Program-made: the position numbers and the translations under genes
Shown: piece after piece, positions 1,851-17,411 of the stretch
Numbering within the stretch: position 1 is the first letter of the stretch
Layout: each line of letters begins with the position of its first letter
From: Halomicronema hongdechloris C2206
GTDB taxonomy: Bacteria; Cyanobacteriota; Cyanobacteriia; Phormidesmidales; Phormidesmidaceae
DNA: 32,000 nt
Direction of reading: 5' to 3'
Assembly: GCF_002075285.3 (NCBI RefSeq)
Contig: NZ_CP021983.2
Location: 4,950,001-4,982,000, forward strand
The notes under the pieces: generated by a model
Database searches by the model: none
Told to the model about the DNA's origin: nothing
What the model saw: only the letters and a program-made list of their open reading frames with translations

Positions 1851-3143
1851 TAGTACCCGATGACAGAAGTAAGCGAGCTATTTATGCGGTGAGAGGCTTG
1901 CCTGTATAGTTCCACTTGAAGGGCTTGGCCATCGTGCGATTGAAGTAATCAACAAAGTCCAAAATCTTGGCCCTGAGTTCAGCTTGACTCTTAAAACTGG
2001 AGCGTCGGAGCAACTTCCGCACCAAAATACTAAACCAAATTCCAATTTGATTGAGCCAGGAACAATGCTTCGGGGTGAAATGCACCACCAGACGATGTGC
2101 CGCGTTGGTCAAGAACGCGGCACGGGTCGCCATCGATTGCAGAATGCCGGACTTGCCTTTGACGCCTAATGCCAGGGGTTCAGGTTCGAGCTCAGCCGCC
2201 AAACGCACCAGGGACTCGGACTGGTGTGTGTTGAGACAGTCCATGACCAAGTGAATTTTGGGTGCCTCCGGGGACTGCGCGAGCAAGGCTCTCAGATGAG
2301 TGTCTAAATCCTGCTCAGTGCGGGTATCGCCCACCGTTGCCTGGTCGATGCGTCCGGTGGCCACATTCAAGGAGGCAATGAGAGCTTGGGTGCCATGGCG
2401 AATGTATTCAAATTCGACTCGAACACAGCGCCCCGGCTTCATGGCAATATCCGGCATCGTTCGCTCCAGGGCTTGAATCCCAGTCATTTCATCGAGACTA
2501 ACGGTCAACTCACCCTGCTCGGCTGGTGCGGCCGCTTGTTGATAAACCTCACAGATGTCTTCAACTTTGGCTTTGAACGCTGGGTCGGGAGGGGATTTAA
2601 CCAGTAGCGGCTCTGGTGCGGTTTGAGTTCGGCTTCCGCCAAGAGGCGACCCACATGTCGCACACTGATGCTATCGACGATCTGTTGCTGGATTAATTCA
2701 TCGGCCAGTTCTTGGGGCGTCCATTGACTAATCGGACGGCCATATTGCTCCGGTGGCGAACAGGCCAAAGCATACAGTTCGGTGATTTGCTCCAGTGTAA
2801 AGGTGGGTGGCGTCCCGGAGCGATAGGCATCTTGCAACCGCTCGGCGACGGGCACCTCGCGGGAACTGAGTGACAATCAGCGCGTTCGCCAGCACCGACT
2901 CATCGCTTTGCCAATGCCTAAGTCACGGGCAATCGCACCGTGGCTGTCGCCCTGAGCCGCTCGCAGGATGATTTTCGCCCGCAAAGCGATTTACTGAGGG
3001 GTGCTGGGACGCTTCGCGAGCTGCTTTAACTCATGAAGTTCCGACTCGCTCAAGGTGATGGATGGGGCGGGTAGACGGGGCATAACTGGGATGTCCTGAG
3101 AGGGGTTCCTAAAGGATACTCCCATTTCTGCCATTCAGTACTA
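1851..3143 (-). mobile_element. IS630-family insertion sequence, decayed
   Basis: The transposase reading frames are of IS630 type. The imperfect terminal inverted repeats are GTACCCGATGACAGAAGT (left, from 1853) and the reverse complement of TTCTGCCATTCAGTAC (right, ending 3141), about 14/21 matching. Both ends are flanked by TA (1851-1852 and 3142-3143), as expected for the TA target duplication of this family. Confidence 0.8.
1882..3083 (-). pseudogene. IS630-family transposase, disrupted by two in-frame stops and one frameshift
   Basis: From ATG 3083..3081 the HTH-like N-terminus MPRLPAPSITLSESELHELKQLAKRPSTPQ runs into TAA at 2993..2991 and then TGA at 2879..2877. ORF 2876..2505 (..KPHQSRYWLN) needs a frameshift near 2585-2595 to continue as PDPAFKAKVEDICEVYQQAAAPAEQGELTVSLDEMTG, which is ORF 2508..1882. 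The catalytic-core motifs LVMDCLNTHQS and HCSWLNQIGIWFSIL are present. From memory, the G in WLNQIG sits where I would expect a catalytic E. Confidence 0.8.
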
Positions 3144-3438
3144 GCAGCAGATGAACTGTGAGACAGTGTTTTGAACAGAGCTCTTGCACCAGTCCGTTTA
3201 TATCCTGCCTTAGCCTCGTTCGGCTGAGCTCACGTCGACGCCTAAATCCCCTGCAAGATGTGAGTTGAAGTGAGAATGATGACCCGCGAGGTGAGTTGTG
3301 CCGCGCCGGATTGCGATCGCTCAACCGATGAACAATCACTGCGTCCGTTCCGTTCTATTTGCTGGCGTGAGGCAGATCACCACCTTGACTACGAATTCTG
3401 TACTAAGTTTAGATCTTAATTTCATGTGTTCTCGGTAT

Positions 3439-3538
3439 TCCTTTGGCGGGGTATTGGGATGAGGGTATTCCGGACAATTCAGCATACCTCAGTCCTGACT
3501 TCTGTCTAATCAATCAGCTACAGGTAGACTTGTCAACT
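3439..3538. repeat. Conserved ~95-nt non-coding element, copy 1 (partner 11408..11501)
   Basis: Hand alignment gives shared blocks TTGG.(A/G)GGG.ATTGGGAT, ATACCT(C/T)AGTCCTG, CTGTC, TCAAT.AGCTACAG and TTGTCAACT in the same order and orientation. I estimate roughly 75-80% identity. Confidence 0.7.
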
Positions 3539-3656
3539 ACGTGAAAATCACTCACAGCAAGCCCTCCAGGGAGAAGAATTAGCACAAGATCGCTAACCCC
3601 TTGTGAAACTATTTAAGATTCCCTTTACCAATCAGTTCTCAGCAAGGCTACCTAAC

Positions 3657-6600
3657 ATGTTAGACACCCTACTGTTGATTCCCCACGGGCACTGCTATCT
3701 TTGGAAACCCAATCTAGTCGGATTACATGTGGTTTCAGATGCGCTGATTGGCATCGCCTACTACTCCATTCCCTTGACCTTGCTCTATTTTGTTCAGAAG
3801 CGCAAGGATGTTCCGTTTGACTGGATTTTCTTACTGTTTTCCGCGTTTATTGCGTTTTGCGGCACCACCCACTTAATGTCCATTTGGACACTGTGGCATC
3901 CGGCTTATTGGGTCTCGGGCACCATCAAAGCACTCACGGCAGCGATTTCGGTCTACACCGCGATTCAACTCATTCCGATTGTCCCCAAAGCGCTCGATTT
4001 GCCCAGTCCAGCCCAGCTAGAAGCGATCAACCATCAGCTTCAGCAGCACGTTGCTAAGCGTGAGCAGGCAGAACGACATCTGCGCCAGTTGTCTGCTCGC
4101 CTGAATCTGGCAGTGAAGTCTGCGGCTATCGGCATTTGGGATTGGGACATGACCCAAGACATCCTCACCTGGGATAAACGGATGTATGAGCTCTATGGCC
4201 TCATCCCCGAGTGTTTTACCCCTGCCTATGGAGCATGGTCGAGCTGTTTGCATCCCGACGATCGCAGGGCAGCAGAAATGGCTGCTCAGCAAGCCCTGCA
4301 AGGCGAGAAAGACTTTGACCAAGACTTTCGAGTGGTTCATCCCGATGGCAGCATCCACTACATCAAAGCCAATGCGCTGGTGCAGCGCGATCCCCACGGT
4401 GACCCTCAACGGATGATCGGGGTTAGCTATGACATTACTGATCGCAAGCAGGCTGAGCAACAACTCCAGCAACTCAATCAAGCGCTAGAAGCCAAAGTCG
4501 AAGAGCGCACCCGAGAACTGCAAGCCCTGGCCAGACGGGAGCAATTGAGTGCCAACATCGCCACTCAGATCCGATCATCGCTAGATTTACAGGTGATTCT
4601 GGAGACGGCGGTGCGGGAGATTCGATCGCTGCTACAGTGCGCTCGCGTGAATATCTGGCGATTTGACGCCGATGGGCAAACCATGGTCGTGGCCGAGTCC
4701 ACCGACTCCTCCCTGTCGCTGGTGGGGGAACGGGTCAACGACACCTGCCTGCAAGACTACACCGCACTTTATCGCCAGGGGCGGGTGCGCATCGTGCCGG
4801 ATATCTACACTACCGACATGTCAGCCTGTCACCGGGAGCTACTGATCCGCTCCCAGATACGCGCCAAAATCTTGGTGCCGCTGCTGTGTGGGGATGAGTT
4901 GTGGGGCTTGCTCCATGTCAGCGAGAGCCAACACCCCCGCGACTGGCAACCGGAAGAAGTGGAGCTGCTGCAGGCGTTATCGGTGCAACTGGGGATCGCC
5001 CTTCAACAGGCCACCATCCATCAGCAATTACAGGCGGAACTGAACGAGCGACAGCAAACGGAAGCTCGCCTGCGAGCCAGTGAACAACGTTATATCACCC
5101 TGGCAGCAGCGGTTCCCGTGGGGATTTATCGCACCGACGCGGCGGGTAACTGCCTCTACGTCAACGATCGCTTGGGTCAGATCACGGGGCTCGCCCCAGA
5201 AGCGACAATGGGACAGGGATGGCGGCAAGGACTGCACCCGGATGATCGGGACCGGGTCGTGACTGAATGGTATCAATCTGCCCAGGAAAATCGTCCCTTC
5301 CAGCTCGAATATCGGTTTCAACACCCTGACGGGACGGTGAGGTGGGTCTATGGACAATCCGTCGCCGAGTGGGATGCCGATGGGCAAGTGATTGGCTATG
5401 TCGGCACCATCACGGATATCAGCGAGAGAAAGCGGCTGGAAGCCGAACGCAAACAGGTCGAAGCCGAGCGCCTGCAAGCTAAGCAGACTCGTAAAGAGTT
5501 AACGTTACTGGAGCAGATTCTGGACATCATTCTCGCGGGCTATTGGGATTGGGATATTCCCGGCAATCAAGAATACCTTAGCCTTGGCTTCAAACAAATG
5601 TTTGGCTACGCCGATCACGAACTGCCCAACACCCCTGAAACCTGGCAAAATCTAATCTTTCCACAAGATTTACCCGGGGTATTGGAGTGTTTCAACCGCC
5701 ATGTCCAGAGCCGAGGGGAAGTGCCCTACGTCAACGAAGTCCGCTATCGCCATAAAGATGGATCGACGGTCTGGGTGATCTGCTCCAGTAAGGTGATTGA
5801 GTGGGATGAGGCGGGTAACCCGCTGCGGATGATTGGCTGTCACATTGATATTAGCGATCGCAAACGGGCAGAAGCCGCCCTGATTAGCAGTGAAGCCCGA
5901 CTACAATACCTGGTCTCCTCCAGCCCCGTCGTCATTTTTAGCTGCAAACCCAATGGCGACTATGGGGCCACCTTTATCAGCGAAAACGTCGAAGCGTTAT
6001 TGGGCTGGAATGCTCAGGATTTTCTGGCAGACTCTGAATTTTGGCTCAACCATCTCCATCCCGACGATGCTGAGCGGGTTCTGGCCGGGCTGGCAAATTT
6101 ATTCACCGGTGACTTTTATGCGCACGAGTACCGCCTCCGTAAAGGCGATGATACCTACTGTTGGTGCCTGGCCCAGTTACGGTTGATTCGCGATCAGGCC
6201 GGTAACCCCCTCGAGATGCTGGGATATTTGATTGATATTAGCGATCGCAAACACACCGAAGCAGCCCTGCGGGACAGCGAAGCCCGACTGCAACTGATTA
6301 CCGACTCTATTCCGGGCTGCATTTCCTACACGGATGCCTCCCAGCACTATCGGTTTGTCAACCACACCTATGAAGAGTGGTTTGGCTGTCGGAAGGAAGA
6401 TATCCTGGAGCGCAGCATTGCCGAGGTGCTTGGCGCTGAAGCGTACCAGCGTGCCCGACAGCATATTGAGCGTGTGCTGTCTGGCGAAACCGTGACCTAT
6501 GAAAACGAGTTGCCCTATCAGGGGAGACAACCCCGCTATGTCTCTGGGAAATTGGTGCCAGAGATTGACTCACAGGGCCGGGTTCACGGCTACTATGCGC

Positions 6601-8477
6601 TGATTACCGACATTAGCGATCTCAAACAGGCCGAAGCCGCACTCAAGGCCAGCCGGGCTTACTATCAGGGCATCGTCTCTGACCAGACAGAACTGATCTG
6701 CCGCTTCTTGCCCGACGGCATCCTCACCTTTGTCAACGATGCCTACTGCCAGTTTTTCCAGAAGTCGCCGGAAGACCTCTTGGGCCGTAGCTTTACCCCC
6801 CTCATACCTGCCGAGGACAAAGAGATTGCCTTACAAACCTTCAACAGCCTGTCCGTAGACAACCCGGTCGTCACCTGTGAACATCGCGTGATTGCGCCGG
6901 ATGGCTCCATCCGCTGGCAACAGTGGACCGATCGCGCCCTAGTTGACCCAGACGGCAACTTCATTGAATTCCAGGCAGTCGGTCGAGACATTACTGCCCT
7001 GAAAGAAGCAGAAGCCGACATCAAGCGCCATCTCACCGCGATTGAGGCTGCCATCGACGGCATCAGCATTTTGCGAGATGGCCATTATAGTTATCTGAAC
7101 CAGTCCCAGTTAACCCTATTCGGTTATTCCCAAGCCGAGGATCTGTTGGGCCAATCCTGGCAGGTGCTCTACCCCGCTCAGGAAGTTCGCCGGTTCCAAA
7201 AAGAGGTGCTGCCCCAGGTGAAGCAACACGGGTTCTGGCACGGTGAAGCCACAGGGAAACGACGGGACAACACCCTTTTCCCCGTGGAGGTATCGCTGAC
7301 CCTGACCCCTACCGGCGATATCATCCGAGTTTGTCGGGATATCAGCGATCGCAAGCAGGCAGAAGATCATCTCCGCCAGATGTCTGTTCGTTTGAATCTG
7401 GCGGTGAAGTCTGCGGCCATGGGCATCTGGGATTGGGATGTTACCCACAACATCCTCACCTGGGATCAACAAATGTATGAACTCTATGGCATTACCCCCG
7501 AGCAGTTTACCAATGTCTATGAAGCCTGGTCTAGTAGTGTCCATCCCGACGATCTCGCGGCGGCAGAAACGGCGGTTCAGCAAGCCCTGCGCGGTGAAAA
7601 AGACTTTGACCAAGACTTTCGAGTGATTCATCCCGATGGCACCATCCGCTTCATCAAAGCTAATGCCCTGGTGCAGCGCAATCGCCACGGTGACCCTGAA
7701 TGGATGATCGGGATTAACTATGACATTACCGCTCGCAAACGCACTGAAGCCCAAATCCAAGAGTATGCCACCCAACTAGAGTCCTCTAACCGAGAATTGG
7801 AAGCCTTTGCCTACTCGGTTTCCCATGACCTGCGGGCTCCTCTGCGGGCGATCGATGGCTTTAGCAAAGCCTTACTCGAAGATTACGGAGACACTTTCGA
7901 TGAAGAGGGCCAAGATTACTTCGATCGGATTCGCAAAAATGTCACCCGCATGGGCATGTTAATCGATGATTTGCTGAGCTTATCGCGGGTCTCTCGCTAC
8001 GAAATCCGGCATACCACGGTCAACCTCAGTACCCTGGCTCAAGAGCTGATGGCTGAATTGCAAGCATCGGAGCCAGAGCGGCCCGTCGAGGTTGGGATTG
8101 CCCCCGACGCGATCGTCTCCGCCGATGCCACCCTGATGCGGGTGGTCCTGACGAACCTGTTGCAAAATGCCTGGAAATTTACCAGCCACCATCCCACAGC
8201 CCGAATTGAATTTGGCATGATTTACCCAGACGGACAGCCGGTCTATTTTGTCCGAGACGATGGCGCTGGCTTTGATATGGCCTACTCCAACATGCTGTTT
8301 GGCGTCTTCCAACGATTGCATAATATCCATGAATTTCCCGGCACAGGAATTGGGTTAGCGACGGTTCAAAGAGCGATTCATCGCCATGGGGGACGCGTTT
8401 GGGCAGAGGCAACCGTCGAGCAGGGCGCAACCTTTTATTTCACCCTTCCCAGTACACCGCTCGAGCTAGGAGCATAG
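3657..8477 (+). CDS. Multi-sensor histidine kinase: ethylene-binding-domain-like 3-TM N-terminus, PAS, bilin-type (CBCR-like) GAF, seven further PAS/PAC, HisKA, HATPase_c
   Basis: The ORF is open from GTG 3603; I prefer ATG 3657 (MLDTLLLIPHGHCYLW). The N-terminus aligns by eye to Arabidopsis ETR1 helices 1-3: VVSDALIGIAYYSIPLTLLYFV, WIFLLFSAFIAFCGTTHLMSIWT and TIKALTAAISVYTA. The GAF has ..NDTCLQDY.. and ..DIYTTDMSACHRELL..ILVPLL..LWGLL. Repeated PAS/PAC ends read DI(S/T)(D/E)RK. The H-box is FAYSVSHDLRAPLRAI, and the N/G boxes are LLQNAWKF, DDGAGFD and GTGIGLATV. Confidence 0.93.
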   Translation: MLDTLLLIPHGHCYLWKPNLVGLHVVSDALIGIAYYSIPLTLLYFVQKRKDVPFDWIFLLFSAFIAFCGTTHLMSIWTLWHPAYWVSGTIKALTAAISVYTAIQLIPIVPKALDLPSPAQLEAINHQLQQHVAKREQAERHLRQLSARLNLAVKSAAIGIWDWDMTQDILTWDKRMYELYGLIPECFTPAYGAWSSCLHPDDRRAAEMAAQQALQGEKDFDQDFRVVHPDGSIHYIKANALVQRDPHGDPQRMIGVSYDITDRKQAEQQLQQLNQALEAKVEERTRELQALARREQLSANIATQIRSSLDLQVILETAVREIRSLLQCARVNIWRFDADGQTMVVAESTDSSLSLVGERVNDTCLQDYTALYRQGRVRIVPDIYTTDMSACHRELLIRSQIRAKILVPLLCGDELWGLLHVSESQHPRDWQPEEVELLQALSVQLGIALQQATIHQQLQAELNERQQTEARLRASEQRYITLAAAVPVGIYRTDAAGNCLYVNDRLGQITGLAPEATMGQGWRQGLHPDDRDRVVTEWYQSAQENRPFQLEYRFQHPDGTVRWVYGQSVAEWDADGQVIGYVGTITDISERKRLEAERKQVEAERLQAKQTRKELTLLEQILDIILAGYWDWDIPGNQEYLSLGFKQMFGYADHELPNTPETWQNLIFPQDLPGVLECFNRHVQSRGEVPYVNEVRYRHKDGSTVWVICSSKVIEWDEAGNPLRMIGCHIDISDRKRAEAALISSEARLQYLVSSSPVVIFSCKPNGDYGATFISENVEALLGWNAQDFLADSEFWLNHLHPDDAERVLAGLANLFTGDFYAHEYRLRKGDDTYCWCLAQLRLIRDQAGNPLEMLGYLIDISDRKHTEAALRDSEARLQLITDSIPGCISYTDASQHYRFVNHTYEEWFGCRKEDILERSIAEVLGAEAYQRARQHIERVLSGETVTYENELPYQGRQPRYVSGKLVPEIDSQGRVHGYYALITDISDLKQAEAALKASRAYYQGIVSDQTELICRFLPDGILTFVNDAYCQFFQKSPEDLLGRSFTPLIPAEDKEIALQTFNSLSVDNPVVTCEHRVIAPDGSIRWQQWTDRALVDPDGNFIEFQAVGRDITALKEAEADIKRHLTAIEAAIDGISILRDGHYSYLNQSQLTLFGYSQAEDLLGQSWQVLYPAQEVRRFQKEVLPQVKQHGFWHGEATGKRRDNTLFPVEVSLTLTPTGDIIRVCRDISDRKQAEDHLRQMSVRLNLAVKSAAMGIWDWDVTHNILTWDQQMYELYGITPEQFTNVYEAWSSSVHPDDLAAAETAVQQALRGEKDFDQDFRVIHPDGTIRFIKANALVQRNRHGDPEWMIGINYDITARKRTEAQIQEYATQLESSNRELEAFAYSVSHDLRAPLRAIDGFSKALLEDYGDTFDEEGQDYFDRIRKNVTRMGMLIDDLLSLSRVSRYEIRHTTVNLSTLAQELMAELQASEPERPVEVGIAPDAIVSADATLMRVVLTNLLQNAWKFTSHHPTARIEFGMIYPDGQPVYFVRDDGAGFDMAYSNMLFGVFQRLHNIHEFPGTGIGLATVQRAIHRHGGRVWAEATVEQGATFYFTLPSTPLELGA

Positions 8478-8480
8478 GCG

Positions 8481-8903
8481 ATGGCAACCCCTCGTCCCAT
8501 CTTGTTGGTTGAAGATAACCCCGACGATGAACGACTGACCCTGCGGGCACTACGACAGGGTAAGGTGACAAACCCCATTCAGGTTGCTAGGAATGGTGAA
8601 GAGGCATTGACAGTGCTATTTTCGGCTGATCCGCTACCCACTGTCGTGTTGCTGGACTTAAAGCTCCCCAAAATTGATGGATTGGAGGTTTTGCGACGCA
8701 TCCGAGGCCATGACCGCACTCGACTGCTGCCGGTGGTTGTGCTCACCTCCTCCAGCGAAGAGCGGGACATTGTTGAAAGCTATAGCCTGGGGGCCAATAG
8801 TTATGTGCGGAAGCCGGTTGATTTTGATCAATTCACCAACGCCATCTCTCAACTCGGGTTGTATTGGGTGCTGATTAATGAGCCATTACCGGAAAGCTTG
8901 TAA
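8481..8903 (+). CDS. Single-domain CheY-like response regulator (Rcp1-like)
   Basis: ILLVEDNPDDERLTL.., VVLLDLKLPKIDGLEVL, VVVLTSSSEE and YVRKPVDFDQF are REC-domain hallmarks. The start lies 3 nt after the kinase stop. Confidence 0.92.
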   Translation: MATPRPILLVEDNPDDERLTLRALRQGKVTNPIQVARNGEEALTVLFSADPLPTVVLLDLKLPKIDGLEVLRRIRGHDRTRLLPVVVLTSSSEERDIVESYSLGANSYVRKPVDFDQFTNAISQLGLYWVLINEPLPESL

Positions 8904-8905
8904 TC

Positions 8906-10996
8906 ATGAGTGACTCACTCCGTGTTCTGATCGTGGAAGATGCAGAGGACGATGCGCTGCTAGTGTTGCGAGAATTACGTCGTGGTAATTTCGATCTGGT
9001 TTGGGAACGGGTGCAAACAGCTGAGTCGCTCCGCACCCTGCTGACGACCCGGGCCTGGGACGTGATCATTTCAGATTACCGCTTACCCGGATTTGACGCC
9101 CCTGCGGCCCTGGAAATTGTCAAACAAAGCCAACTCGACATTCCCTTCATTATGGTTTCGGGCACCATTGGTGAGCGCTCGGCGGTGGAAATCATGAAGG
9201 CCGGTGCCCACGATTACCTGATGAAGGACAACTTAGTCCGATTACCCGAGGCGGTGCGGCGCGAATTGCGGGATGCTCAAATTCGGGCAGAGCGCAAACA
9301 AGCTGAAGTTGCCCTGAGACGGCAACTGGCGGCGATCGAGGCGGCGATCGATGGCATCGGTATTCTGCAAGGAGACACGTATCTCTATCTCAACCAAGCC
9401 TATCTCAACCTCTTTGGCTACGACCACGCTGAAGAGCTGGTGGGCAAAACCTGGAGACTGTGTTATTCCCAAGTGGAGATAGACCGGTTTGAGCAGGAAG
9501 TCTTTCCAGTGCTGGATCGCGATCGCGCCTGGCAGGGAGAAGCGATCGCCACTCGCAAAGATGGCTCTACCTTTGCCCAGGGCGTGTCCCTCACCCTCAC
9601 CGAGGATGGATTATTGATTTCTGTCTGTCGTGATATTAGCGACCTCAAACAGGCCCAGGAGATGCTGATCTATATCGCGTTGCACGATCCCCTGACCGGG
9701 TTACCGAACCGAAAACTATTGATAGAGCGACTTGAATTGGCCATTAACCGAGCCAGGCGTCTTGAGAACTACCATTATGCGGTCTTATTTCTGGATCTAG
9801 ATCGATTCAAAGTGATCAATGATAGTTTGGGGCACTCGGTTGGCGACCAGCTCCTGATCGCCATTGCCCAACGACTAAAAGTGCATGTAAGAGACATTGA
9901 CTTAGTGGCTCGACTGGGGGGTGACGAGTTTGTGATTCTGCTAGAGGAGATCAGTGGTCCTGAAGACGTGATTCAAATTTCCGAACGTATCCTGGCAGAT
10001 TTTCAAACGCCGTTCATCATCCATGACTATGAAATCTTTACCAGTTTCAGTATTGGTATTGTTCTGGGAACCCAGGATTACCATCAGACTTCCGATTTAA
10101 TGCGCGATGCCGACATTGCCATGTATCGAGCTAAGGCACAACAGAACAACTCGTATAAGTTTTTCGATGCAGCGATGCATACTCAAGCGCTGAACCGCCT
10201 CACCCTCGAAACGGATCTGCGCAAAGCGCTCAACCAACAAGAATTTGTGGTTTACTATCAACCCATTTTTGATTTGTTCAATCATCGACTGTTTGGATTT
10301 GAGGCTTTAGTTCGCTGGCAACACCCGACGCGTGGGTTCATTTCTCCAGATGAATTTATTTCTATTGCCGAAGAGACGGGGTTCATTGTACCCCTGGATA
10401 ATTGGGTGCTTTATAACGCTTGCCAGCAAATAGCCAGTTGGGAAAACCAATTTGCCAATGGGTCCTCCTTCAAAATCAGTATCAACCTTTCTGCACAAGA
10501 TCTTCGCAAGGTGAATTTGATTCAGGATGTTGATGACATATTGGCTGATACTGGATTAGCGGGTCACTCGCTCACCTTAGAGATTACCGAGAGTCTGTTG
10601 ATTGAGAACATCGATCAGACCATTGATTTATTAGTTCAGTTGGCGTCGAGAAACATTCAGATCAGCATTGATGACTTTGGCACAGGGTATTCCTCCCTGG
10701 GTTATCTACACCGTTTTCCAGTGAATAACCTGAAAATCGATCGCTCTTTTGTGGATCAAATTCAATCAGAAAGTCGCGAATATCATGTCGTCGATACGAT
10801 TATTGCCCTCGGTCAGCACCTCGGTCTATCGGTGATTGCAGAAGGCGTTGAAACAACTCAACAGCTTGAATGGCTACAACAACTCCGTTGCGAGTTTGGG
10901 CAAGGCTATCTATTTTCTAAACCCCTAGCAGCAGCTGAAATTGAAAGACGTTATCTCGCCAGACTAGAGGAAACGTATAACTCAAATGAGGGATAA
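8906..10996 (+). CDS. Response regulator with REC-PAS-GGDEF-EAL architecture (c-di-GMP synthesis/hydrolysis)
   Basis: REC: VLIVEDAEDD, DVIISDYRLPG, DYLMK. The PAS domain spans aa 141-251. GGDEF: RLGGDEFVILL, with RDID five residues upstream (an RxxD I-site). EAL: FEALVRW, EITES, DDFGTGYSSL, KIDRSF, EGVET, QGYLFSKP. The start lies 2 nt after the upstream stop. Confidence 0.93.
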   Translation: MSDSLRVLIVEDAEDDALLVLRELRRGNFDLVWERVQTAESLRTLLTTRAWDVIISDYRLPGFDAPAALEIVKQSQLDIPFIMVSGTIGERSAVEIMKAGAHDYLMKDNLVRLPEAVRRELRDAQIRAERKQAEVALRRQLAAIEAAIDGIGILQGDTYLYLNQAYLNLFGYDHAEELVGKTWRLCYSQVEIDRFEQEVFPVLDRDRAWQGEAIATRKDGSTFAQGVSLTLTEDGLLISVCRDISDLKQAQEMLIYIALHDPLTGLPNRKLLIERLELAINRARRLENYHYAVLFLDLDRFKVINDSLGHSVGDQLLIAIAQRLKVHVRDIDLVARLGGDEFVILLEEISGPEDVIQISERILADFQTPFIIHDYEIFTSFSIGIVLGTQDYHQTSDLMRDADIAMYRAKAQQNNSYKFFDAAMHTQALNRLTLETDLRKALNQQEFVVYYQPIFDLFNHRLFGFEALVRWQHPTRGFISPDEFISIAEETGFIVPLDNWVLYNACQQIASWENQFANGSSFKISINLSAQDLRKVNLIQDVDDILADTGLAGHSLTLEITESLLIENIDQTIDLLVQLASRNIQISIDDFGTGYSSLGYLHRFPVNNLKIDRSFVDQIQSESREYHVVDTIIALGQHLGLSVIAEGVETTQQLEWLQQLRCEFGQGYLFSKPLAAAEIERRYLARLEETYNSNEG

Positions 10997-11062
10997 GAGG
11001 GGCGTATCCACGAGGTAGGGGAGTACAAATGTCACCCGGCATTATCCAGTCCGCTCCTCGAT

Positions 11063-11222
11063 GTCATTCCCGTACTCGCTTAGCGTGGCCGGAGGCCGTA
11101 AAACGGGAATCCACTGACCGATAGGTTGCCGCTCTGGATTCCCGCCGGCGCGGGAATGACTCCTCACTTCTCACTTCTCCCTCCTCCCTTCTCCCCTGGA
11201 CTCCCGCCGGCGCGGGAATGAC
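11063..11222. repeat. Cluster of three hairpin-repeat units of the GTCATTCCCG..CGGGAAT family plus a pyrimidine-rich tract
   Basis: Stems are ATTCCCGT (11066..11073) / ACGGGAAT (11103..11110), ATTCCCGC (11138..11145) / GCGGGAAT (11150..11157), and a third unit GGACTCCCGCCGGCGCGGGAATGAC (11198..11222). TCCTCACTTCTCACTTCTCCCTCCTCCC lies between the second and third units. Confidence 0.85.
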
Positions 11223-11407
11223 ACCGGGATCATTTTTGTTCGCGAGCCCCTTAATTCTCACACCTGTCATGTCGTCTGTCTTTCAGACAAGCTGTGCCCT
11301 AGCATCAGCCATGCCCCTTGGGCTATACGCGTCAGCGGCTCCAGAGGAACAACGAAGCGGATGAGCAACGCCACACCCAGGCTTTGCAATCTACTGATTT
11401 TCGATAT

Positions 11408-11501
11408 TACCTTGGTAGGGATTGGGATAGTCCAGGCGGTCAAGAATACCTTAGTCCTGGCTGCTGTCCAGTCAATGAGCTACAGAGGGGATTTGTCAAC
11501 T
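11408..11501. repeat. Conserved ~95-nt non-coding element, copy 2 (partner 3439..3538)
   Basis: See copy 1: same block order and orientation. Confidence 0.7.
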
Positions 11502-11513
11502 GGTTGGAAGTAG

Positions 11514-11650
11514 GTAGGGTGGGCAAAATCAGGATAGATAACCCTCGCTGGTGCCTGTAAGCTTTGTTTGCCCACCAATTTTTTCAGCGGTGGGCATTGT
11601 AGCTTGAGTGCGGGTTAGCAAAGATTTCGGACAAGAAATGCCCACCCTAC
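11514..11650. repeat. MITE-like structured element: two tandem long hairpins with GGTGGGCA(A/T)(A/T) stems, bounded by a 12-bp inverted repeat
   Basis: GTAGGGTGGGCA (11514..11525) is the reverse complement of TGCCCACCCTAC (11639..11650). Hairpin 1 pairs GGTGGGCAAA (11518..11527) with TTTGCCCACC (11567..11576). Hairpin 2 pairs GGTGGGCATT (11589..11598) with AATGCCCACC (11637..11646). Confidence 0.7.
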
Positions 11651-11887
11651 GAACTGCTCATCAACAGTGAGCCAACGGTCTTTATCTGGCAATCTCAACA
11701 GCTCGTCGCCGGCCGCGCCATCATTGCTGGGGAGCAGAGACTAGGCGCAGTCAGTATTGGCCTCTCAACCGCTCCGCTACAGCAGAAAGTTGCTAGGGTC
11801 CGCAACCAAGGCATCGTCATCGCGCTGATTGCAGGGGGGTTAGGGGCGAGTATTGCCGTAGTACTCAGCCGCTCGATCACAACCCCA

Positions 11888-12982
11888 TTGCAGGCTCTCG
11901 TGGTGGCCACCCGCAAGATTGCCCAAGGGGATCTAAATCAGCAGGTGCCGATTCAGAGCCATGATGAGCTGGCCGTCTTGGCCCAGTCCTTTAACGAGAT
12001 GACCAGCCGCTTGCAGCAAACCCTATCCCTACTCCAAGCCCACAAAGACGAGTTAGAGCAGCGGGTACAGGAACGCACCCAAGCGCTGTCCGAGGCCATT
12101 CAGCACCTGCAGCAGACGCAGACCCAATTGGTTCAAAGCGAGAAAATGTCTAGTCTGGGCCAATTAGTCGCTGGTGTCGCCCACGAAATCAACAATCCAG
12201 CTAGTTTCATCCACGGCAATCTCACCTACGCCTCTACCTACATCCAAGATCTGCTGGATATTATCACCCTTTACCAACAGCACTACCCAAATCCCCCAGC
12301 CGGCCTGCAAGAAGCCATTGATGCAGTTGATTTGGCGTTTATTCAAAGTGATTTGCCGAAGTTACTGCAATCTATGCAGGTGGGCTCTGATCGCATCAAT
12401 GAGATTGTCCGCTCCCTGCGAACGTTTTCCCGCCTGGAAGAGGGGGACTTTAAGCCTGCTGACATCCACGACGGGATTGACAGCACGCTGATGATTTTGA
12501 AGCATCGCCTGAAGATGGCCACTGGCAACGGCATCCAGGTGGTCAAACACTACGCTCCCCTAGATCCTATCGATTGCCGCCTGGGGCAACTGAATCAGGT
12601 GTTCATGAATATTCTCACCAATGCCATCGACGCCTTGCAGGACCAAGGGGCGGCGCCGTCGAGCCCGTCTCAGCAGCCTCCCACCATTGAGATTCGCACC
12701 CGATCCCTGTCTCCCGACTGGATCGCTATTCATATTTTCAACAACGGCCCCAGTATCGACACCGAGATTCACTCCAAGCTGTTCGATCCTTTCTTCACCA
12801 CGAAATCGGTTGGGCAAGGGACCGGCCTGGGGCTCTCCATTAGCTACCAAATCGTGACTGAGCATCACCGGGGGCGCCTCTATTGCCATTCCAAGGCTAA
12901 TTGGGGAACCGAATTCATCCTCGAGTTGCCCACCCATCATCCCGACGAGACCATGCCGGACTTGGCGGCAGCAGATCACTGA
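11888..12982 (+). CDS. Histidine kinase (HAMP remnant-HisKA-HATPase_c) lacking its N-terminal sensor/TM1 region; possibly a pseudogene
   Basis: H-box LVAGVAHEINNPASF; the N/G boxes are as in copy A. The frame is open from 11603 and encodes a sensor-domain end plus TM2 (..GAVSIGLSTAPLQQKVARVRNQGIVIALIAGGLGASIAVVLSRSITTPLQ). There is no ATG/GTG/TTG before TTG 11888, which lies inside the HAMP region. Confidence 0.65.
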   Translation: MQALVVATRKIAQGDLNQQVPIQSHDELAVLAQSFNEMTSRLQQTLSLLQAHKDELEQRVQERTQALSEAIQHLQQTQTQLVQSEKMSSLGQLVAGVAHEINNPASFIHGNLTYASTYIQDLLDIITLYQQHYPNPPAGLQEAIDAVDLAFIQSDLPKLLQSMQVGSDRINEIVRSLRTFSRLEEGDFKPADIHDGIDSTLMILKHRLKMATGNGIQVVKHYAPLDPIDCRLGQLNQVFMNILTNAIDALQDQGAAPSSPSQQPPTIEIRTRSLSPDWIAIHIFNNGPSIDTEIHSKLFDPFFTTKSVGQGTGLGLSISYQIVTEHHRGRLYCHSKANWGTEFILELPTHHPDETMPDLAAADH

Positions 12983-13003
12983 GCGGCCGCGACTCAGGGC
13001 TGG
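12280..13003. repeat. Copy B of the ~720-bp near-identical duplication (partner 1..724)
   Basis: See copy A. Confidence 0.95.
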
Positions 13004-13088: not shown

Positions 13089-15422
13089 CTAGGAATGCAG
13101 CCGCTGCACATGATAGGTGGGAAAGGTGCCGTAATGCTTGGCCCAAGGCATCCGTCCCACATAACTGCAGGTAAACGATTGCTGGCCCTCGGAGGTGGCG
13201 ATGGCGGCAAAGGCCTGGCTGGCATAGACTTTGCCCGGCGGTGTGATCGGCTCGATGCGGGCGGCATGGTTAACATGGGTACCCATGTAGTTGACCTGAT
13301 TGGTAATGGGGTCAACATTGCGCAACACCGGCCCGGCATGGAGAGCGATGCGAATGGTGAGATCGGCAGGTAACCCTTGTTGCTGCCAGTCGATGGACTG
13401 CATCAGATCGCCGAGATCGAGGGCGAAGAGGCCGGCCTCCTGCACCGTGGGAAACACATAGTAGAGGGCATCTCCCCAGGTATTCTTGGTCAGGGGCTGA
13501 TACCGGGGCTGATTGGATAAGGCCGCTACCGCCTCCAGAAAATGCCGCATGAAGATGCACAGCTGGTCTTCCAGCAGTTGGGTGTACTGCACCACATCGG
13601 CAAACAGCAGGGCGCGAATCTCCCGCTGCTGTTGTTCTAGAGCCGCCGTAGGCGTGGACCTCGGCTCAGACTCGGTGTCATACCCTGCTGCCGCCAGTAA
13701 AGCAGCACTGTCAATGATCTCCACCTGGTGGCTCCACTGCTGCCAGTAGGCCACCGTGCTGGCGGTGCCGCCGGGACCATCGCCGGGCTGACCATTCCAG
13801 ACGGCCAAGGGCACTAAATCGGTGTAGAGTTGCTCGGCCCGGATTTTAGCCAGCCCATGCAACAAGCGGTTGGAATACTCGTAGGAGACATCGTCTGCCT
13901 GGGGTTTGCAGTCGGAGGCGACCACCACCTCTCGGGCTTGGGATAAGACCCGGTCGAAGCGGGCCACCCAATCCCCTGCCGTCGCCGTGCTTACCGAGTC
14001 TTGAATGAACTGGTCCCGGTTATAGGGCAGCACGATATTGCACTCTCCCCCCAGCTCCAGCAGGGCTTCCAGGAACAAAATATCGCTGCCACAGGCGGCC
14101 GAGGCATAGCCCACCCGCCCGTTCAGCTGTTGCAGTCGGGTATGAATGGCGTCGTACACGGAGTCCTCCAGCACTGGCGGCAACCGTGGCTGGGGTCGAT
14201 TGGCGGCATCCATGCGATGGCCACAGAAGACGATCACCCGGGGCATCTGAAACCACTCTCGCAGGGGGTCTAGGCCCTGGCCCAGGTGCTGCATCAACAG
14301 GGCCGCATTGCGATAGCTGGAACCCAGATCGCCGAATCGTCCCTGGCCCACCTGAACCGCCTGAGTGTAGTAGGCAGCGGCTTGGTCATAGCGGCCCAGT
14401 ACTAATTCGGCCTCCCCTAGGGTGGCTAAGATCCAGTAGGTGTCCTGGCCGGTCTTGGTGGCTTGCTCTAGGGCCTGTCGAGCGGTTTCGGCCACGGCGG
14501 TGGCCAGCTGGCGGGCCTGGCCGCGGTTCCCTTGGAGTAGGCTCAGGGTGGCAGCGTTGATGCCGGGCCAGAGGCTACCACTGCGGCGATAGGCTTCTAG
14601 ATAGCGGTCTGCGGCCAGCTTTAAGTGATGCGATCGCATCTGGTCAGGCCCTGCCTGGCGCCAGAGGTCCTTGTGGGTGCGGGCCAGCAAGCTTAGGGTT
14701 TCATCGTCATCCTGCCCTGCCGCCATCAGTTGACCCAACACCTCATTAGCGGCATGGGTGGCGCCGCTGCGGGCCAGGGCCAGGGCCAATAACTGCTGCA
14801 ACCGCAAATGCTGAGGCCACTGCTTCAGACCATCCGCCAGCACATCATAGGCCATTAGGGTTTCCCCCAACTGCAGCATCATTTCCCCCAAAGAGCAGTG
14901 TAGATCGGGGGTGCGGGGCCGCAGGGTGACAATTTCCCGTCGCAGCGCCAGCAGTGGGGCCAACTGCCGCGGCATGGCCCCAGCCCCGATACGCAGAGTC
15001 GCCGTGGCAGCCTCAGCGGTCCCCAACTTGATGCGAGGGGGCGCCACCGGTTGCGCCTCAATCCGATAGCCCAGGGCCACGGCCGTCTTGAGATTGTCGA
15101 GGTAGACCTGTAATTGCTGTTCTTGAACGGCTTCCGGTAGCTGCTCGAAAGGACAGAGATAGGGATGAGTGCGCTCGGCGGCATTGAGCCGAGTGCCATA
15201 GCGCCAACCTAGCCCGAGTAATGCTTGGGCCCAATGGTCATGACTGTTTTCAGCCAACCGCTCTGCCAGATATAAGTACTCCGCCGTCAGCGTTGCCTGA
15301 GACGTATCGATGGGCTGTGGTTGGTACACGGGTTGTTCTTGTCCCCTGCAGCGTTTACCCGAGCGTTGAGGGTCTCCCTCGCTTTTCCTCCATTGTGGGG
15401 TGACAACGGCAGAAGCATCCAC
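13089..15422 (-). CDS. Multidomain signalling protein: RyR domain, TPR / TRAF-binding-like helical repeat region, SLOG-like Rossmann domain, class III adenylate/guanylate cyclase domain
   Basis: RyR-like: AENSHDHWAQALLGLGWRYGTRLNAAERTHPYLCPFEQLPEAVQEQ..ALGYRI. Helical repeat: ETLSLLARTHKDLW..YLEAYRRSGSLWPGINAATL. SLOG-like: VIVFCGHRMD..GYASAACGSDILFLEALLELGGECNIVLPY..LAVWNGQPGDGPGGTA. Cyclase: LLFADVVQYTQL, TWGDALYYVF, IRIALHAGPV, GTHVNHAARIE. Confidence 0.88.
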   Translation of the reverse strand: MDASAVVTPQWRKSEGDPQRSGKRCRGQEQPVYQPQPIDTSQATLTAEYLYLAERLAENSHDHWAQALLGLGWRYGTRLNAAERTHPYLCPFEQLPEAVQEQQLQVYLDNLKTAVALGYRIEAQPVAPPRIKLGTAEAATATLRIGAGAMPRQLAPLLALRREIVTLRPRTPDLHCSLGEMMLQLGETLMAYDVLADGLKQWPQHLRLQQLLALALARSGATHAANEVLGQLMAAGQDDDETLSLLARTHKDLWRQAGPDQMRSHHLKLAADRYLEAYRRSGSLWPGINAATLSLLQGNRGQARQLATAVAETARQALEQATKTGQDTYWILATLGEAELVLGRYDQAAAYYTQAVQVGQGRFGDLGSSYRNAALLMQHLGQGLDPLREWFQMPRVIVFCGHRMDAANRPQPRLPPVLEDSVYDAIHTRLQQLNGRVGYASAACGSDILFLEALLELGGECNIVLPYNRDQFIQDSVSTATAGDWVARFDRVLSQAREVVVASDCKPQADDVSYEYSNRLLHGLAKIRAEQLYTDLVPLAVWNGQPGDGPGGTASTVAYWQQWSHQVEIIDSAALLAAAGYDTESEPRSTPTAALEQQQREIRALLFADVVQYTQLLEDQLCIFMRHFLEAVAALSNQPRYQPLTKNTWGDALYYVFPTVQEAGLFALDLGDLMQSIDWQQQGLPADLTIRIALHAGPVLRNVDPITNQVNYMGTHVNHAARIEPITPPGKVYASQAFAAIATSEGQQSFTCSYVGRMPWAKHYGTFPTYHVQRLHS

Positions 15423-16802: not shown

Positions 16803-17411
16803 TTACTTCAACTTCTGCTTGATAAAGGCCAGCATCTTGGCCAGTTGCCCCTTGAGTTGGTTCACCTCGGCTTGTAGGTGATTCACCTTAGCCACCAGTG
16901 CTTGATAATCGGCTGGATCGATGCCGCCAGCAGCAGCCTCCCCTGGCGGAGCCTCGGCGGCAGGGGCAGCCGCCTGGGCCGGGCGAGCCTTGCGGGCCTT
17001 GGCCATGGCCCCCTTAATGGCGCCAATCAATTCTTTCTGGTCGAAGGGTTTCTGAATGAACTCAAAATACTCGAAGGGTTCTTGAATCTTCTCAGTCACC
17101 TCTTCCTTGCGGCCCGACATCAGCACCAGCGGAATATGCTGCAGGTCGGGGCGAGCCTGAATTTCTTGAAAGACTTCCCAACCGCTTTTACGGGGCAGCA
17201 AAAAGTCCAACATGATCAGATTGGGCCGCTGATCTTGAATGGCACTCATGCCCTCCACCCCATCTTGGGCTTCGATCACCTCAAAATTGCCCTGAGGTAA
17301 CATATCGCGAACCCGCATGCGGATGACACGGCTGTCGTCAATGACCAGAATTTTGTGACTTGCCACGGCTGATTCCTCTTGGCGGTAGCGCAGTGATGGG
17401 TTGCTGCCCAT
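16803..17411 (-). CDS. Response regulator: REC domain plus Ala/Pro linker and C-terminal coiled coil
   Basis: KILVIDDSRVIR, NLIMLDFLLPRKSG, LVLMSGR and FIQKPFD. The tail DYQALVAKVNHLQAEVNQLKGQLAKML is heptad-like. Confidence 0.88.
   Translation of the reverse strand: MGSNPSLRYRQEESAVASHKILVIDDSRVIRMRVRDMLPQGNFEVIEAQDGVEGMSAIQDQRPNLIMLDFLLPRKSGWEVFQEIQARPDLQHIPLVLMSGRKEEVTEKIQEPFEYFEFIQKPFDQKELIGAIKGAMAKARKARPAQAAAPAAEAPPGEAAAGGIDPADYQALVAKVNHLQAEVNQLKGQLAKMLAFIKQKLK

Follow-up and report, generated by a model that had tools for sequence, protein, structure and literature searches.

A putative ethylene- and light-sensing histidine kinase in one operon with a CheY-like protein and a REC-PAS-GGDEF-EAL regulator in Halomicronema hongdechloris

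Organization of the operon and domains of its products

This work concerns three signaling genes within a stretch of 32,000 nucleotides (nt) of the cyanobacterium Halomicronema hongdechloris C2206 (contig NZ_CP021983.2, positions 4,950,001 to 4,982,000), hereafter the window, numbered from its first letter. They encode a large histidine kinase (K) that carries an ethylene-binding domain (EBD) and a cyanobacteriochrome (CBCR)-type GAF domain, a stand-alone receiver (REC) protein (C) and a REC-PAS-GGDEF-EAL regulator (D), an arrangement from which a route toward cyclic di-GMP (c-di-GMP) may be proposed. A protein search and cluster look-up gave exact matches to ASC73740.1 (“multi-sensor signal transduction histidine kinase”), ASC73741.1 (“response regulator”), and ASC73742.1 (“two-component system response regulator”) of this strain, each of which is the sole member of its own 90% cluster, and the source record is a finished 5.58-Mb contig. 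K could start at GTG 3603 or ATG 3657; the public annotation uses the latter, in agreement with the N-termini of homologues (MLDTLL..).

An earlier note on this DNA, made from the letters alone, had described three same-strand open reading frames (ORFs) separated by 3 and 2 nt as a tight operon, and the ORF coordinates confirm it (Table 1). These gaps leave no space for a promoter or terminator, and a Shine-Dalgarno-like AGGAG lies 9-13 nt 5' of the ATG of C, within the 3' end of K. The note would have taken a promoter or terminator between the genes as counter-evidence: a consensus scan of positions 2800-12000 gave no terminator-like match at the K/C or C/D junction, but a promoter-like match (9/12) remains at 8773-8801, within the C gene, and is a possible internal promoter. 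Over the same interval, promoter-like and terminator-like matches stood at the level of shuffled sequence (7 vs 7.3 expected and 8 vs 8.2 expected, respectively) and carry little information, and no promoter was located by these scans in the 780-nt leader of K, where no known riboswitch is present either, given that an Rfam scan of the whole window returned no match. We infer that K, C, and D are co-transcribed. The hairpin repeat downstream of D is a candidate end of the unit, and only a tentative one since the terminator scan did not call it. This GC-rich palindrome (GTCATTCCCGC..GCGGGAATGAC, at 11134-11163 and 11196-11225) has an inverted copy about 9.6 kb further upstream, at 1501-1538, and may be either an element resembling repetitive extragenic palindromes or miniature inverted-repeat transposable elements (REP/MITE-like), or a terminator hairpin.

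The order of domains in K is EBD, PAS, CBCR-type GAF, seven further PAS, HisKA, and HATPase, which is the architecture that the earlier note had claimed. Pfam places ETR1_N at amino acids (aa) 20-115, GAF at aa 310-449, HisKA at aa 1382-1445, and HATPase_c at aa 1490-1600, while the PAS count of eight, one before the GAF and seven after it, comes from TIGR00229, which gives eight stretches, and from a D-I-S/T-x-R/L-K linker that closes each PAS (aa 259, 587, 731, 860, 985, 1111, 1228, and 1356). The transmitter has the H-box SHDLRAPL with H1390 (HisKA, E 1.2e-13; HATPase_c, E 1.1e-17). PAS1 and PAS8 share 74% aa and 83% nt identity and are, by this measure, a recent internal duplicate. PAS7 and the PAS of D share 52% identity, compared with 25-39% for other PAS pairs, and the D-type PAS of orthologous loci are 47-54% identical to PAS7; this likeness suggests a shared ligand or a PAS-PAS contact between kinase and regulator.

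The EBD matches ETR1_N at E 1.7e-42 over profile positions 2-97 of 97, and hydrophobic 19-aa windows in K are confined to its first ~110 residues (aa ~20-44, 52-77, and 90-110). Residues D28 (3738-3740), Y35, I38, P39, I65, C68 (3858-3860), H72 (3870-3872), and K91 are all present and are invariant across the alignment examined (A1). We take the first seven to be the equivalents of D25, Y32, I35, P36, I62, C65, and H69 of AtETR1. Seven residues of AtETR1 are needed for ethylene binding, and Lys91 partners Asp25 (PMC10266040, PMC6682694). The EBD of K is accordingly a candidate for binding a Cu(I) cofactor and ethylene; direct ethylene binding has been demonstrated in few bacterial proteins, namely SynEtr1 and AzoEtr1 (PMC11819568).

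For the GAF, the top 20 matches in the PDB are all CBCRs (E 1.5e-38 to 1e-17), the best being PPHK (6oap, 1.5e-38) and NpR6012g4 (6bhn, 2.4e-30), with miRFP670nano, TePixJ, AnPixJg2, and Slr1393g3 also among them. PPHK of Leptolyngbya JSC-1, the closest solved relative of this GAF and likewise a kinase, binds phycocyanobilin (PCB) and has a Pg state at 562 nm (PMC11480761). The canonical Cys391-His392 of K (4827-4832) aligns with the CH of PPHK and NpR6012g4, and the second cysteine, C364 (4746-4748), lies in the sequence DTCL. NDTCL aligns on the DPCF of GAFs from EBD-PAS-GAF-histidine kinase (HK) proteins, with Asp (D362) and Cys (C364) kept and Phe changed to Leu, and the nearest GAF relative, P0015, has the same DTCL; in the LWGLL-x-A-H motif the usual His is replaced by Ser. 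The earlier claim of a bilin-type CBCR GAF therefore stands for the CBCR match and the Cys-His pair, but not for a canonical DXCF. We class the domain as a CBCR by sequence, a possible member of the DXCF (two-Cys) subfamily, and presume that it binds a bilin, although sequence predicts neither the binding nor the color.

The two regulators have complete acceptor pockets. In C it consists of E11/D12, Asp59 (8655-8657), T89, and K111, and the PDB matches (5brj, 1.3e-40; 5ic5, 1.2e-38; RcpB 1k66, 1e-21; Rcp1 1i3c, 4e-19; RcpA, 7.5e-19) uphold the label of Rcp1-like CheY and point to a single-domain regulator of the phytochrome-partner (Rcp1/BRR) type, nearest to bacteriophytochrome response regulators. 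D, which had been called a dual GGDEF-EAL enzyme, bears out that description: GGDEF is at aa 338 with an RDID I-site at aa 329, five residues upstream, the EAL motifs are complete (EAL 466, NLS 527, EITE 559, DDFGTG 589, KID 610, EGVE 646, and QGY 666), and the GGDEF-EAL part matches MorA (4rnh, 7e-110; 5m3c, 1.4e-109). Because all GGDEF, I-site, and EAL motifs are present, both cyclase and phosphodiesterase activity are possible. The PAS of D was also considered as a LOV domain, which was rejected for want of an NCRFL motif. The alpha-1 regions of C (DDERLTLRALRQG) and D (DDALLVLRELRRG) are alike, and the overall identity of the two proteins is 30%. The GC content drops inside the D gene (9600-10950), the GGDEF-EAL half having 45% GC (47% at third codon positions) and the REC-PAS half 55% (60%), with 55% in the kinase; the same fall, to 42-45%, occurs in the D orthologues of loci L083, L084, and L086, from genomes of differing GC.

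Table 1. Features of the operon and its immediate surroundings (positions in the window)
Feature	Position	Strand	Details
IS630-type transposase, split: HTH_32 (2505-2876), DDE_3 (1882-2508)	1882-2876	-	Divergent from K
Non-coding leader/promoter region, 780 nt	2877-3656	+	Between the transposase and K
Kinase K, 1606 aa	3657-8477	+	ASC73740.1 / WP_080805565.1; ORF, Pfam, NCBIfam
K EBD, aa 1-125, three hydrophobic helices	3657-4031	+	PF25487 ETR1_N
K PAS1, aa 147-264	4095-4448	+	Repeat and linker analysis
K CBCR-type GAF, aa 310-449	4584-5003	+	Pfam GAF, PDB sequence search
K PAS2-PAS8	5079-5432, 5511-5864, 5898-6251, 6273-6626, 6651-7004, 7002-7355, 7386-7739	+	Pfam, TIGR00229, linker motifs
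K transmitter core, HisKA + HATPase_c	7800-8456	+	Predicted phospho-His1390 at 7824-7826; Pfam, motif check
K/C junction	8465-8483	+	AGGAG within K end, TAG stop, 3 nt (8478-8480), ATG; direct read
Response regulator C, 140 aa, single REC	8481-8903	+	ASC73741.1; Pfam
C/D junction	8901-8908	+	TAA stop, 2 nt (8904-8905), ATG; direct read
Response regulator D, 696 aa, REC-PAS-GGDEF-EAL	8906-10996	+	100% identity to ASC73742.1
D REC	8924-9253	+	Asp57 at 9074-9076; pocket D57, S85, K107
D PAS	9296-9649	+	Pfam/NCBIfam
D GGDEF	9677-10150	+	E 1.8e-49; I-site RDID 9890-9901; GGDEF 9917-9931
D EAL	10214-10924	+	E 3.5e-77; EAL motif 10301-10309
Hairpin repeat (C)TGGAYTCCCGCCGGCGCGGGAATGAC, two copies, the second followed by ATTTTTGTT	11123-11245	+	Candidate end of transcription unit

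Conservation of the cassette and origin of the kinase

D has a large family of orthologues (60-77% identity) among Leptolyngbya-like cyanobacteria and heterocystous ones. From the regulator side, we compared the window with nine other loci (L083-L088, L169-L171), ten contexts in all. The kinase core, the CheY, and D are conserved together in L083, L085, L086, L169, and L170, as well as in the Caldora locus L055; the core of K is 77-84% identical to those that precede the CheY/D orthologues in L083, L084, L086, and L055, and the 2-nt gap between C and D is kept in L055, L085, L086, and L169. What lies ahead of the regulators varies. In L086, a multi-PAS kinase (core 84%) is followed by the CheY (84%) and D (70-78%) with the same 3- and 2-nt gaps, and in L085, where these gaps are also the same, the upstream kinase is cut down to a HATPase fragment before the CheY (81%) and D, with a CBS-GAF-multiPAS kinase afterwards. 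The CheY and D orthologues follow a CBS-GAF-PAS kinase in L169, a GAF-PAS kinase in L170, and a REC-GAF-HK in L088 (CheY 79%), and both are present in L171, whose upstream side is cut by the contig start. L084 has a CBS-GAF-PAS kinase (core 78%) and D but no CheY, and in L087 (N. punctiforme) only a divergent Ser/Thr-kinase-HK lies upstream of the D orthologue.

Among the loci examined, only three have an EBD on this cassette: the window, L083, where the kinase is degraded, and L055, where the contig end cuts D. The Caldora kinase of L055 is built as EBD (74%)-PAS1-PAS2-PAS3-core (82%), with a CheY (72%) and a D-like REC (81%)-PAS (72%)-PAS protein. The TARA locus L083, the closest syntenic relative, has an EBD (83%)-PAS1 gene without HisKA, a core (77%), the CheY (82%), and D (73%). 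In this part of L083 (1928-3158), the EBD gene breaks off early in a GAF-like stretch that follows PAS1, a 58-aa fragment of a HATPase end comes next, and directly upstream, overlapping the start of the EBD gene, there is an intact kinase with an orthologous core, a PAS kinase whose C-terminus is 73% identical to aa 1233-1602 of K. From these comparisons, the co-inherited unit is the transmitter core, the CheY, and the REC-PAS-GGDEF-EAL regulator, with an interchangeable sensor end (CBS-GAF, GAF-PAS, or multi-PAS). The adjacency on whose conservation the earlier note had staked its proposal is thus kept for core, CheY, and D, at 70-84% identity, but not for the EBD head beyond L083 and L055.

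No full-length orthologue of K was found among 5.8 billion proteins, the best match covering 67% of the N-terminal 470 aa at 66% identity. Its EBD is 81-83% identical to those of P0001 (EBD-PAS-HK, 566 aa) and P0003, which have no GAF, and 60-73% to the EBDs of EBD-PAS-GAF-HK proteins, whereas its GAF is 73% identical to that of P0015 (GAF-GAF-CBS, no EBD), 64% to that of the CBS-GAF kinase of L083, and 38-42% to EBD-linked GAFs. Since EBD and GAF have different closest relatives, their pairing in K would be a separate mosaic and not descent of the UirS type. Orthology to UirS/SynEtr1 accordingly failed, EBD and GAF not having been inherited together (architecture-matched homologues stood in for Slr1212), so that the earlier remark that K “starts like” UirS holds as a resemblance of architecture but not as orthology. 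K aa 280-1604 is co-linear (40% identity) with the CBS-GAF-multiPAS kinase of L085, and its EBD-PAS1, PAS2-3 (70%), and core are co-linear with the L055 kinase. It looks like a lineage-specific mosaic, in which an EBD-PAS head like that of the short EBD-PAS-HK proteins sits on a GAF-multiPAS-transmitter body resembling the CBS-GAF kinases found beside these regulators in relatives. A simple addition of an EBD to a multi-PAS kinase of the L086 type was considered and rejected, given 40% identity and the co-linearity with L055 and L085 too; as judged by these alignments, the history of K is more complex than a single fusion.

The surroundings of the operon are rich in repeats. A direct repeat (1-724 and 12280-13003, spacing 12,279 nt, 2 mismatches in ~700 nt) encloses the insertion sequence (IS) element and the whole operon. 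Both copies take in the 3' end of a gene for a HAMP-HisKA-HATPase kinase (53-703 and 11888-12982), and the two encoded proteins share 99% identity. The first copy is cut by the window edge and the second is apparently 5'-truncated (HAMP from aa 3); the pair stems either from a segmental duplication or insertion or from a problem of the assembly. No convincing terminal inverted repeats of the IS630 element were found, the arms being 14-15 nt only. In L169 and L170, transposases (DDE_Tnp_1 and IS66) lie immediately upstream of the cassettes on the opposite strand, which hints at sensor-head swapping in IS-prone spots. Two ~100-nt elements, at 3445-3545 upstream of K and 11405-11505 downstream of the operon, are ~75-80% alike, and their core has 87% identity over 45 nt to a coding piece of PAS3 (5545-5589, WDWDIPGNQEYLSLG), so that by sequence both have the appearance of remnants of PAS-kinase genes. 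A tandem array (1602-1841) of 21-nt units with a 42-nt super-period (~10.7 copies, ~70% match) lies in the interval that separates the kinase-gene repeat from the IS element. Just past the second kinase-gene repeat, 13089-15422 (minus strand) encodes a 777-aa RyR-domain/TPR-sensor/class III nucleotide cyclase protein, and a REC protein is encoded nearby at 16803-17411 (minus strand); neither is tied to the operon by the evidence here.

Known systems and the survey of ethylene-binding domains

SynEtr1/UirS (Slr1212) of Synechocystis PCC 6803, which senses both ethylene and light (PMC6682694, PMC5812497), shares with K the order of an N-terminal three-helix EBD, a PAS, a CBCR-type GAF with two cysteines, and a kinase end, but K has seven extra PAS domains and DTCL, where UirS has DXCF. 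The outputs also differ: UirS acts through the DNA-binding UirR, which induces the PATAN-CheY protein LsiR, whereas the partners of K are a stand-alone CheY and a REC-PAS-GGDEF-EAL protein. Pfam finds no UirR- or LsiR-type regulator in the genes directly downstream of K, which are REC-only and REC-PAS-GGDEF-EAL, as the earlier note had said. A nearer precedent is GeiEtr2 of Geitlerinema PCC 7105, whose cells respond to ethylene; Allen et al. (2019) mentioned in passing that its gene is “grouped” with a diguanylate cyclase domain gene (PMC6682694). Like K, it is an EBD-PAS-GAF kinase beside a c-di-GMP-type gene, but, at 1025 aa, it is of the hybrid type and ends in a receiver, and neither a CheY nor a dual GGDEF-EAL enzyme was described. 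EBD-PAS-GGDEF(-EAL) fusions from Nostoc, Chroococcopsis, and metagenomes (L003, L013, L031, L061, L074, L123; P0010, P0109) also couple an EBD input to a predicted c-di-GMP enzyme, but within a single, uncharacterized protein that lacks both a phosphorelay and a CBCR GAF, and their GGDEF-EAL is ~29% identical to that of D.

On the output side, Cph1-Rcp1 and the bacteriophytochrome/regulator pairs (1i3c, 5brj, 5ic5) pair a kinase that is a bilin photoreceptor with a downstream single-domain regulator from the subfamily of C, although the sensors of these kinases are PAS-GAF-PHY, an EBD is lacking, and their operons contain no c-di-GMP enzyme. Control of c-di-GMP by light through CBCR GAFs is established in cyanobacteria, and SesA, SesB, and SesC are CBCR-GGDEF/EAL photoreceptors. 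Cph2 belongs to the same kind (PMC5812497); in Cph2 and the Ses proteins the GAF is fused to the enzyme, whereas in the K system a phosphorelay would stand between them and an EBD comes in addition. Kinase-controlled REC-GGDEF-EAL regulators, in which phosphorylation of the receiver tunes a c-di-GMP enzyme as we propose for D, are exemplified by Lpl0330/Lpl0329 of Legionella, although their sensors differ. REC-LOV-GGDEF dual-input cyclases have a sensor domain between REC and GGDEF, as D does (PMC13501900), but the PAS of D is not LOV. By analogy, then, the input of the system resembles that of UirS, and of its two outputs one recalls Cph1-Rcp1 and the other the kinase-controlled REC-GGDEF-EAL regulators. 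Its parts and logic are familiar, and nothing else in the databases searched has exactly this combination. Hence the novelty claimed for this wiring stands for the combination, but it is not wholly new, given the neighbor of GeiEtr2 and the direct fusions. We found no experimentally described EBD-to-c-di-GMP pathway in the searchable literature, and the earlier note's statement to that effect holds within that scope.

The earlier note had also suggested asking whether EBD kinases recur beside GGDEF/EAL genes. For this, 160 EBD loci were collected by scans with an EBD profile, half of them from GTDB genomes and half from metagenomes (80 each), and neighbors were classified by phmmer with the window's own domains and by Pfam spot checks. 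All named organisms are cyanobacteria, and the set is a sample whose composition is biased by the order of scanning and falls short of a census, with the source genome and the closest EBD relatives absent from the listed matches. The EBD is fused to GGDEF(-EAL) in six loci, the L-numbered ones given above, and in 12/160 loci (4 + 8) a same-strand gene for a GGDEF/EAL protein or a REC-class III cyclase lies within 1.5 kb. The four GGDEF/EAL cases are L009, L050, L132, and L147, and in L009 and L050 a REC-GGDEF gene overlaps the preceding EBD-PASn-HK-REC kinase. In the other eight (L020, L037, L110, L120, L126, L131, L144, L162), a REC-(GAF)-class III cyclase directly follows the EBD kinase; Guanylate_cyc was matched at E ~1e-64 to 1e-68 in the six tested with Pfam, and L120 and L126 were assigned by phmmer only. 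L126, L131, L144, and L162 also have a separate EBD-only ORF ahead of the EBD-PAS-GAF-HK-REC gene. REC-class III cyclases are a second recurrent second-messenger partner of EBD kinases, and apparently one not described before.

Counting either strand, 13 enzyme ORFs lie within 1.5 kb of EBD genes, where 0.7 would be expected from the density beyond 3 kb (3.2 vs 0.18 per 100 kb), an ~18-fold enrichment that weighs loci regardless of kinship and ignores both phylogeny and the general clustering of two-component genes, and that is a lead and not a proof. That cyanobacterial EBD sensors are, as a class, preferentially wired to enzymes of c-di-GMP (by fusion or operon) and of cAMP/cGMP (by REC-class III cyclases) is possible, but for the present we hold it to be rather doubtful.

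Proposed pathway, alternatives, and biological meaning

The best-supported reading of the operon, which we adopt with modest confidence, is a branched phosphorelay from K to C and D that sets the level of c-di-GMP. One transcription unit would encode this two-component pathway. K would be a membrane-anchored, dimeric HisKA kinase with joint inputs from a Cu(I)-dependent EBD, the GAF, and eight PAS domains, the GAF serving as a two-cysteine, bilin-binding sensor of light, probably at the short-wavelength end, though its color is not predictable. Phosphate from His1390 would pass to Asp59 of C and Asp57 of D; phosphorylation of its receiver, together with its own PAS, would shift the balance in D between the GGDEF cyclase, product-inhibited through the RDID I-site, and the EAL phosphodiesterase. 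The resulting change in cellular c-di-GMP would probably affect motility, aggregation, or mat formation, and C may be a competing phosphate acceptor (a sink or timer) or a second, protein-binding output. Each signaling step is deduced from sequence: the binding of ethylene and of a bilin, phosphotransfer to C and D, the way in which c-di-GMP would shift, and the resulting phenotype.

Several findings weigh against this pathway. The EBD is not obligatory, as most D orthologues follow non-EBD kinases (L084, L086, L088, L169, L170), and the EBD gene of L083 is without a HisKA region. Kinase cores 77-78% identical to that of K recur in the L085 locus, three in number, and several kinases may therefore feed C and D. 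An unlikely alternative is that K signals mainly or only to C, as Cph1 does to Rcp1, with D, as a multi-input c-di-GMP enzyme, run chiefly by other kinases of near-identical core or by its own PAS, and that there is no dedicated route from ethylene or light to c-di-GMP. C is indeed of the phytochrome-partner type, D does carry its own PAS, and some D orthologues have no CheY beside them or stand with kinases of an unrelated kind (L084, L087, L088). Yet the 2-nt C/D gap is conserved in four other loci, core, CheY, and D move together at 70-84% identity, and the acceptor pocket of the D receiver is complete; the alpha-1 likeness of C and D speaks in the same direction, but at 30% overall identity it is suggestive only.

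The chemistry of the sensor end raises a different doubt. With DTCL in place of DXCF and Ser for the His of LWGLL-x-A-H, the bilin chemistry of the GAF is uncertain, its closest relatives (P0015 and the CBS-GAF kinase of L083) are uncharacterized, and bacterial proteins with proven ethylene binding are few. The EBD might thus be an anchor, a dimerization module, or a sensor of another Cu(I) ligand, and the GAF non-photoactive, which would leave K as an ordinary multi-PAS kinase. We regard this as improbable in view of the conservation of all seven ETR1 binding residues and of K91, of both bilin cysteines and the Cys-adjacent His, and of the match to a PCB-binding CBCR structure at E 1.5e-38 (PMC11480761). 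It is further to be considered that K is a singleton mosaic that lies between near-identical 724-nt repeats and adjoins an IS630 transposase, from which the sensor combination may be recent and not yet tuned. Taken further, the locus could be a recent, possibly neutral product of recombination or IS activity among paralogous kinases, or in part an assembly artefact, with no selected integrated function. The 83% nt identity of PAS1 and PAS8, the co-linearity of K with two different kinase types, the bracketing repeat with its 2 mismatches, the transposases upstream of K and of the cassette in L169 and L170, the PAS-like relics in both flanks, and the singleton clusters of all three proteins are consistent with such an origin. 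Nevertheless, the 4.8-kb ORF is uninterrupted with every catalytic and ligand residue intact, PAS1 and PAS8 have diverged to 74% aa identity, so that the join is not brand new, and the record is a finished contig, and we consider this reading quite improbable.

Ethylene alters phototaxis and biofilm formation in Synechocystis and Geitlerinema, and the only mapped bacterial ethylene pathway, UirS-UirR-LsiR, is transcriptional, while the main signals in cyanobacterial motility and aggregation are c-di-GMP and cAMP. Should EBD kinases commonly feed second-messenger enzymes, a direct biochemical route would lead from an environmental gas, which arises photochemically from organic matter, to behavior, and ethylene (or another ligand of the Cu(I) site) would be a general input to the second-messenger network of motility and biofilms. 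The one-component EBD-PAS-GGDEF-EAL proteins would then be simple systems in which to measure the control of an enzyme by ethylene. In H. hongdechloris, a mat-forming producer of chlorophyll f, the K operon would add a light input in the same protein, K integrating gas and bilin-sensed light and relaying phosphate to a bifunctional c-di-GMP enzyme, and the locus would exemplify the swapping of sensor heads onto a fixed cassette of transmitter and regulators. A single operon of this kind is unsurprising; a recurrent coupling of EBDs to c-di-GMP enzymes and cyclases would be a useful and testable generalization for the cyanobacteria.

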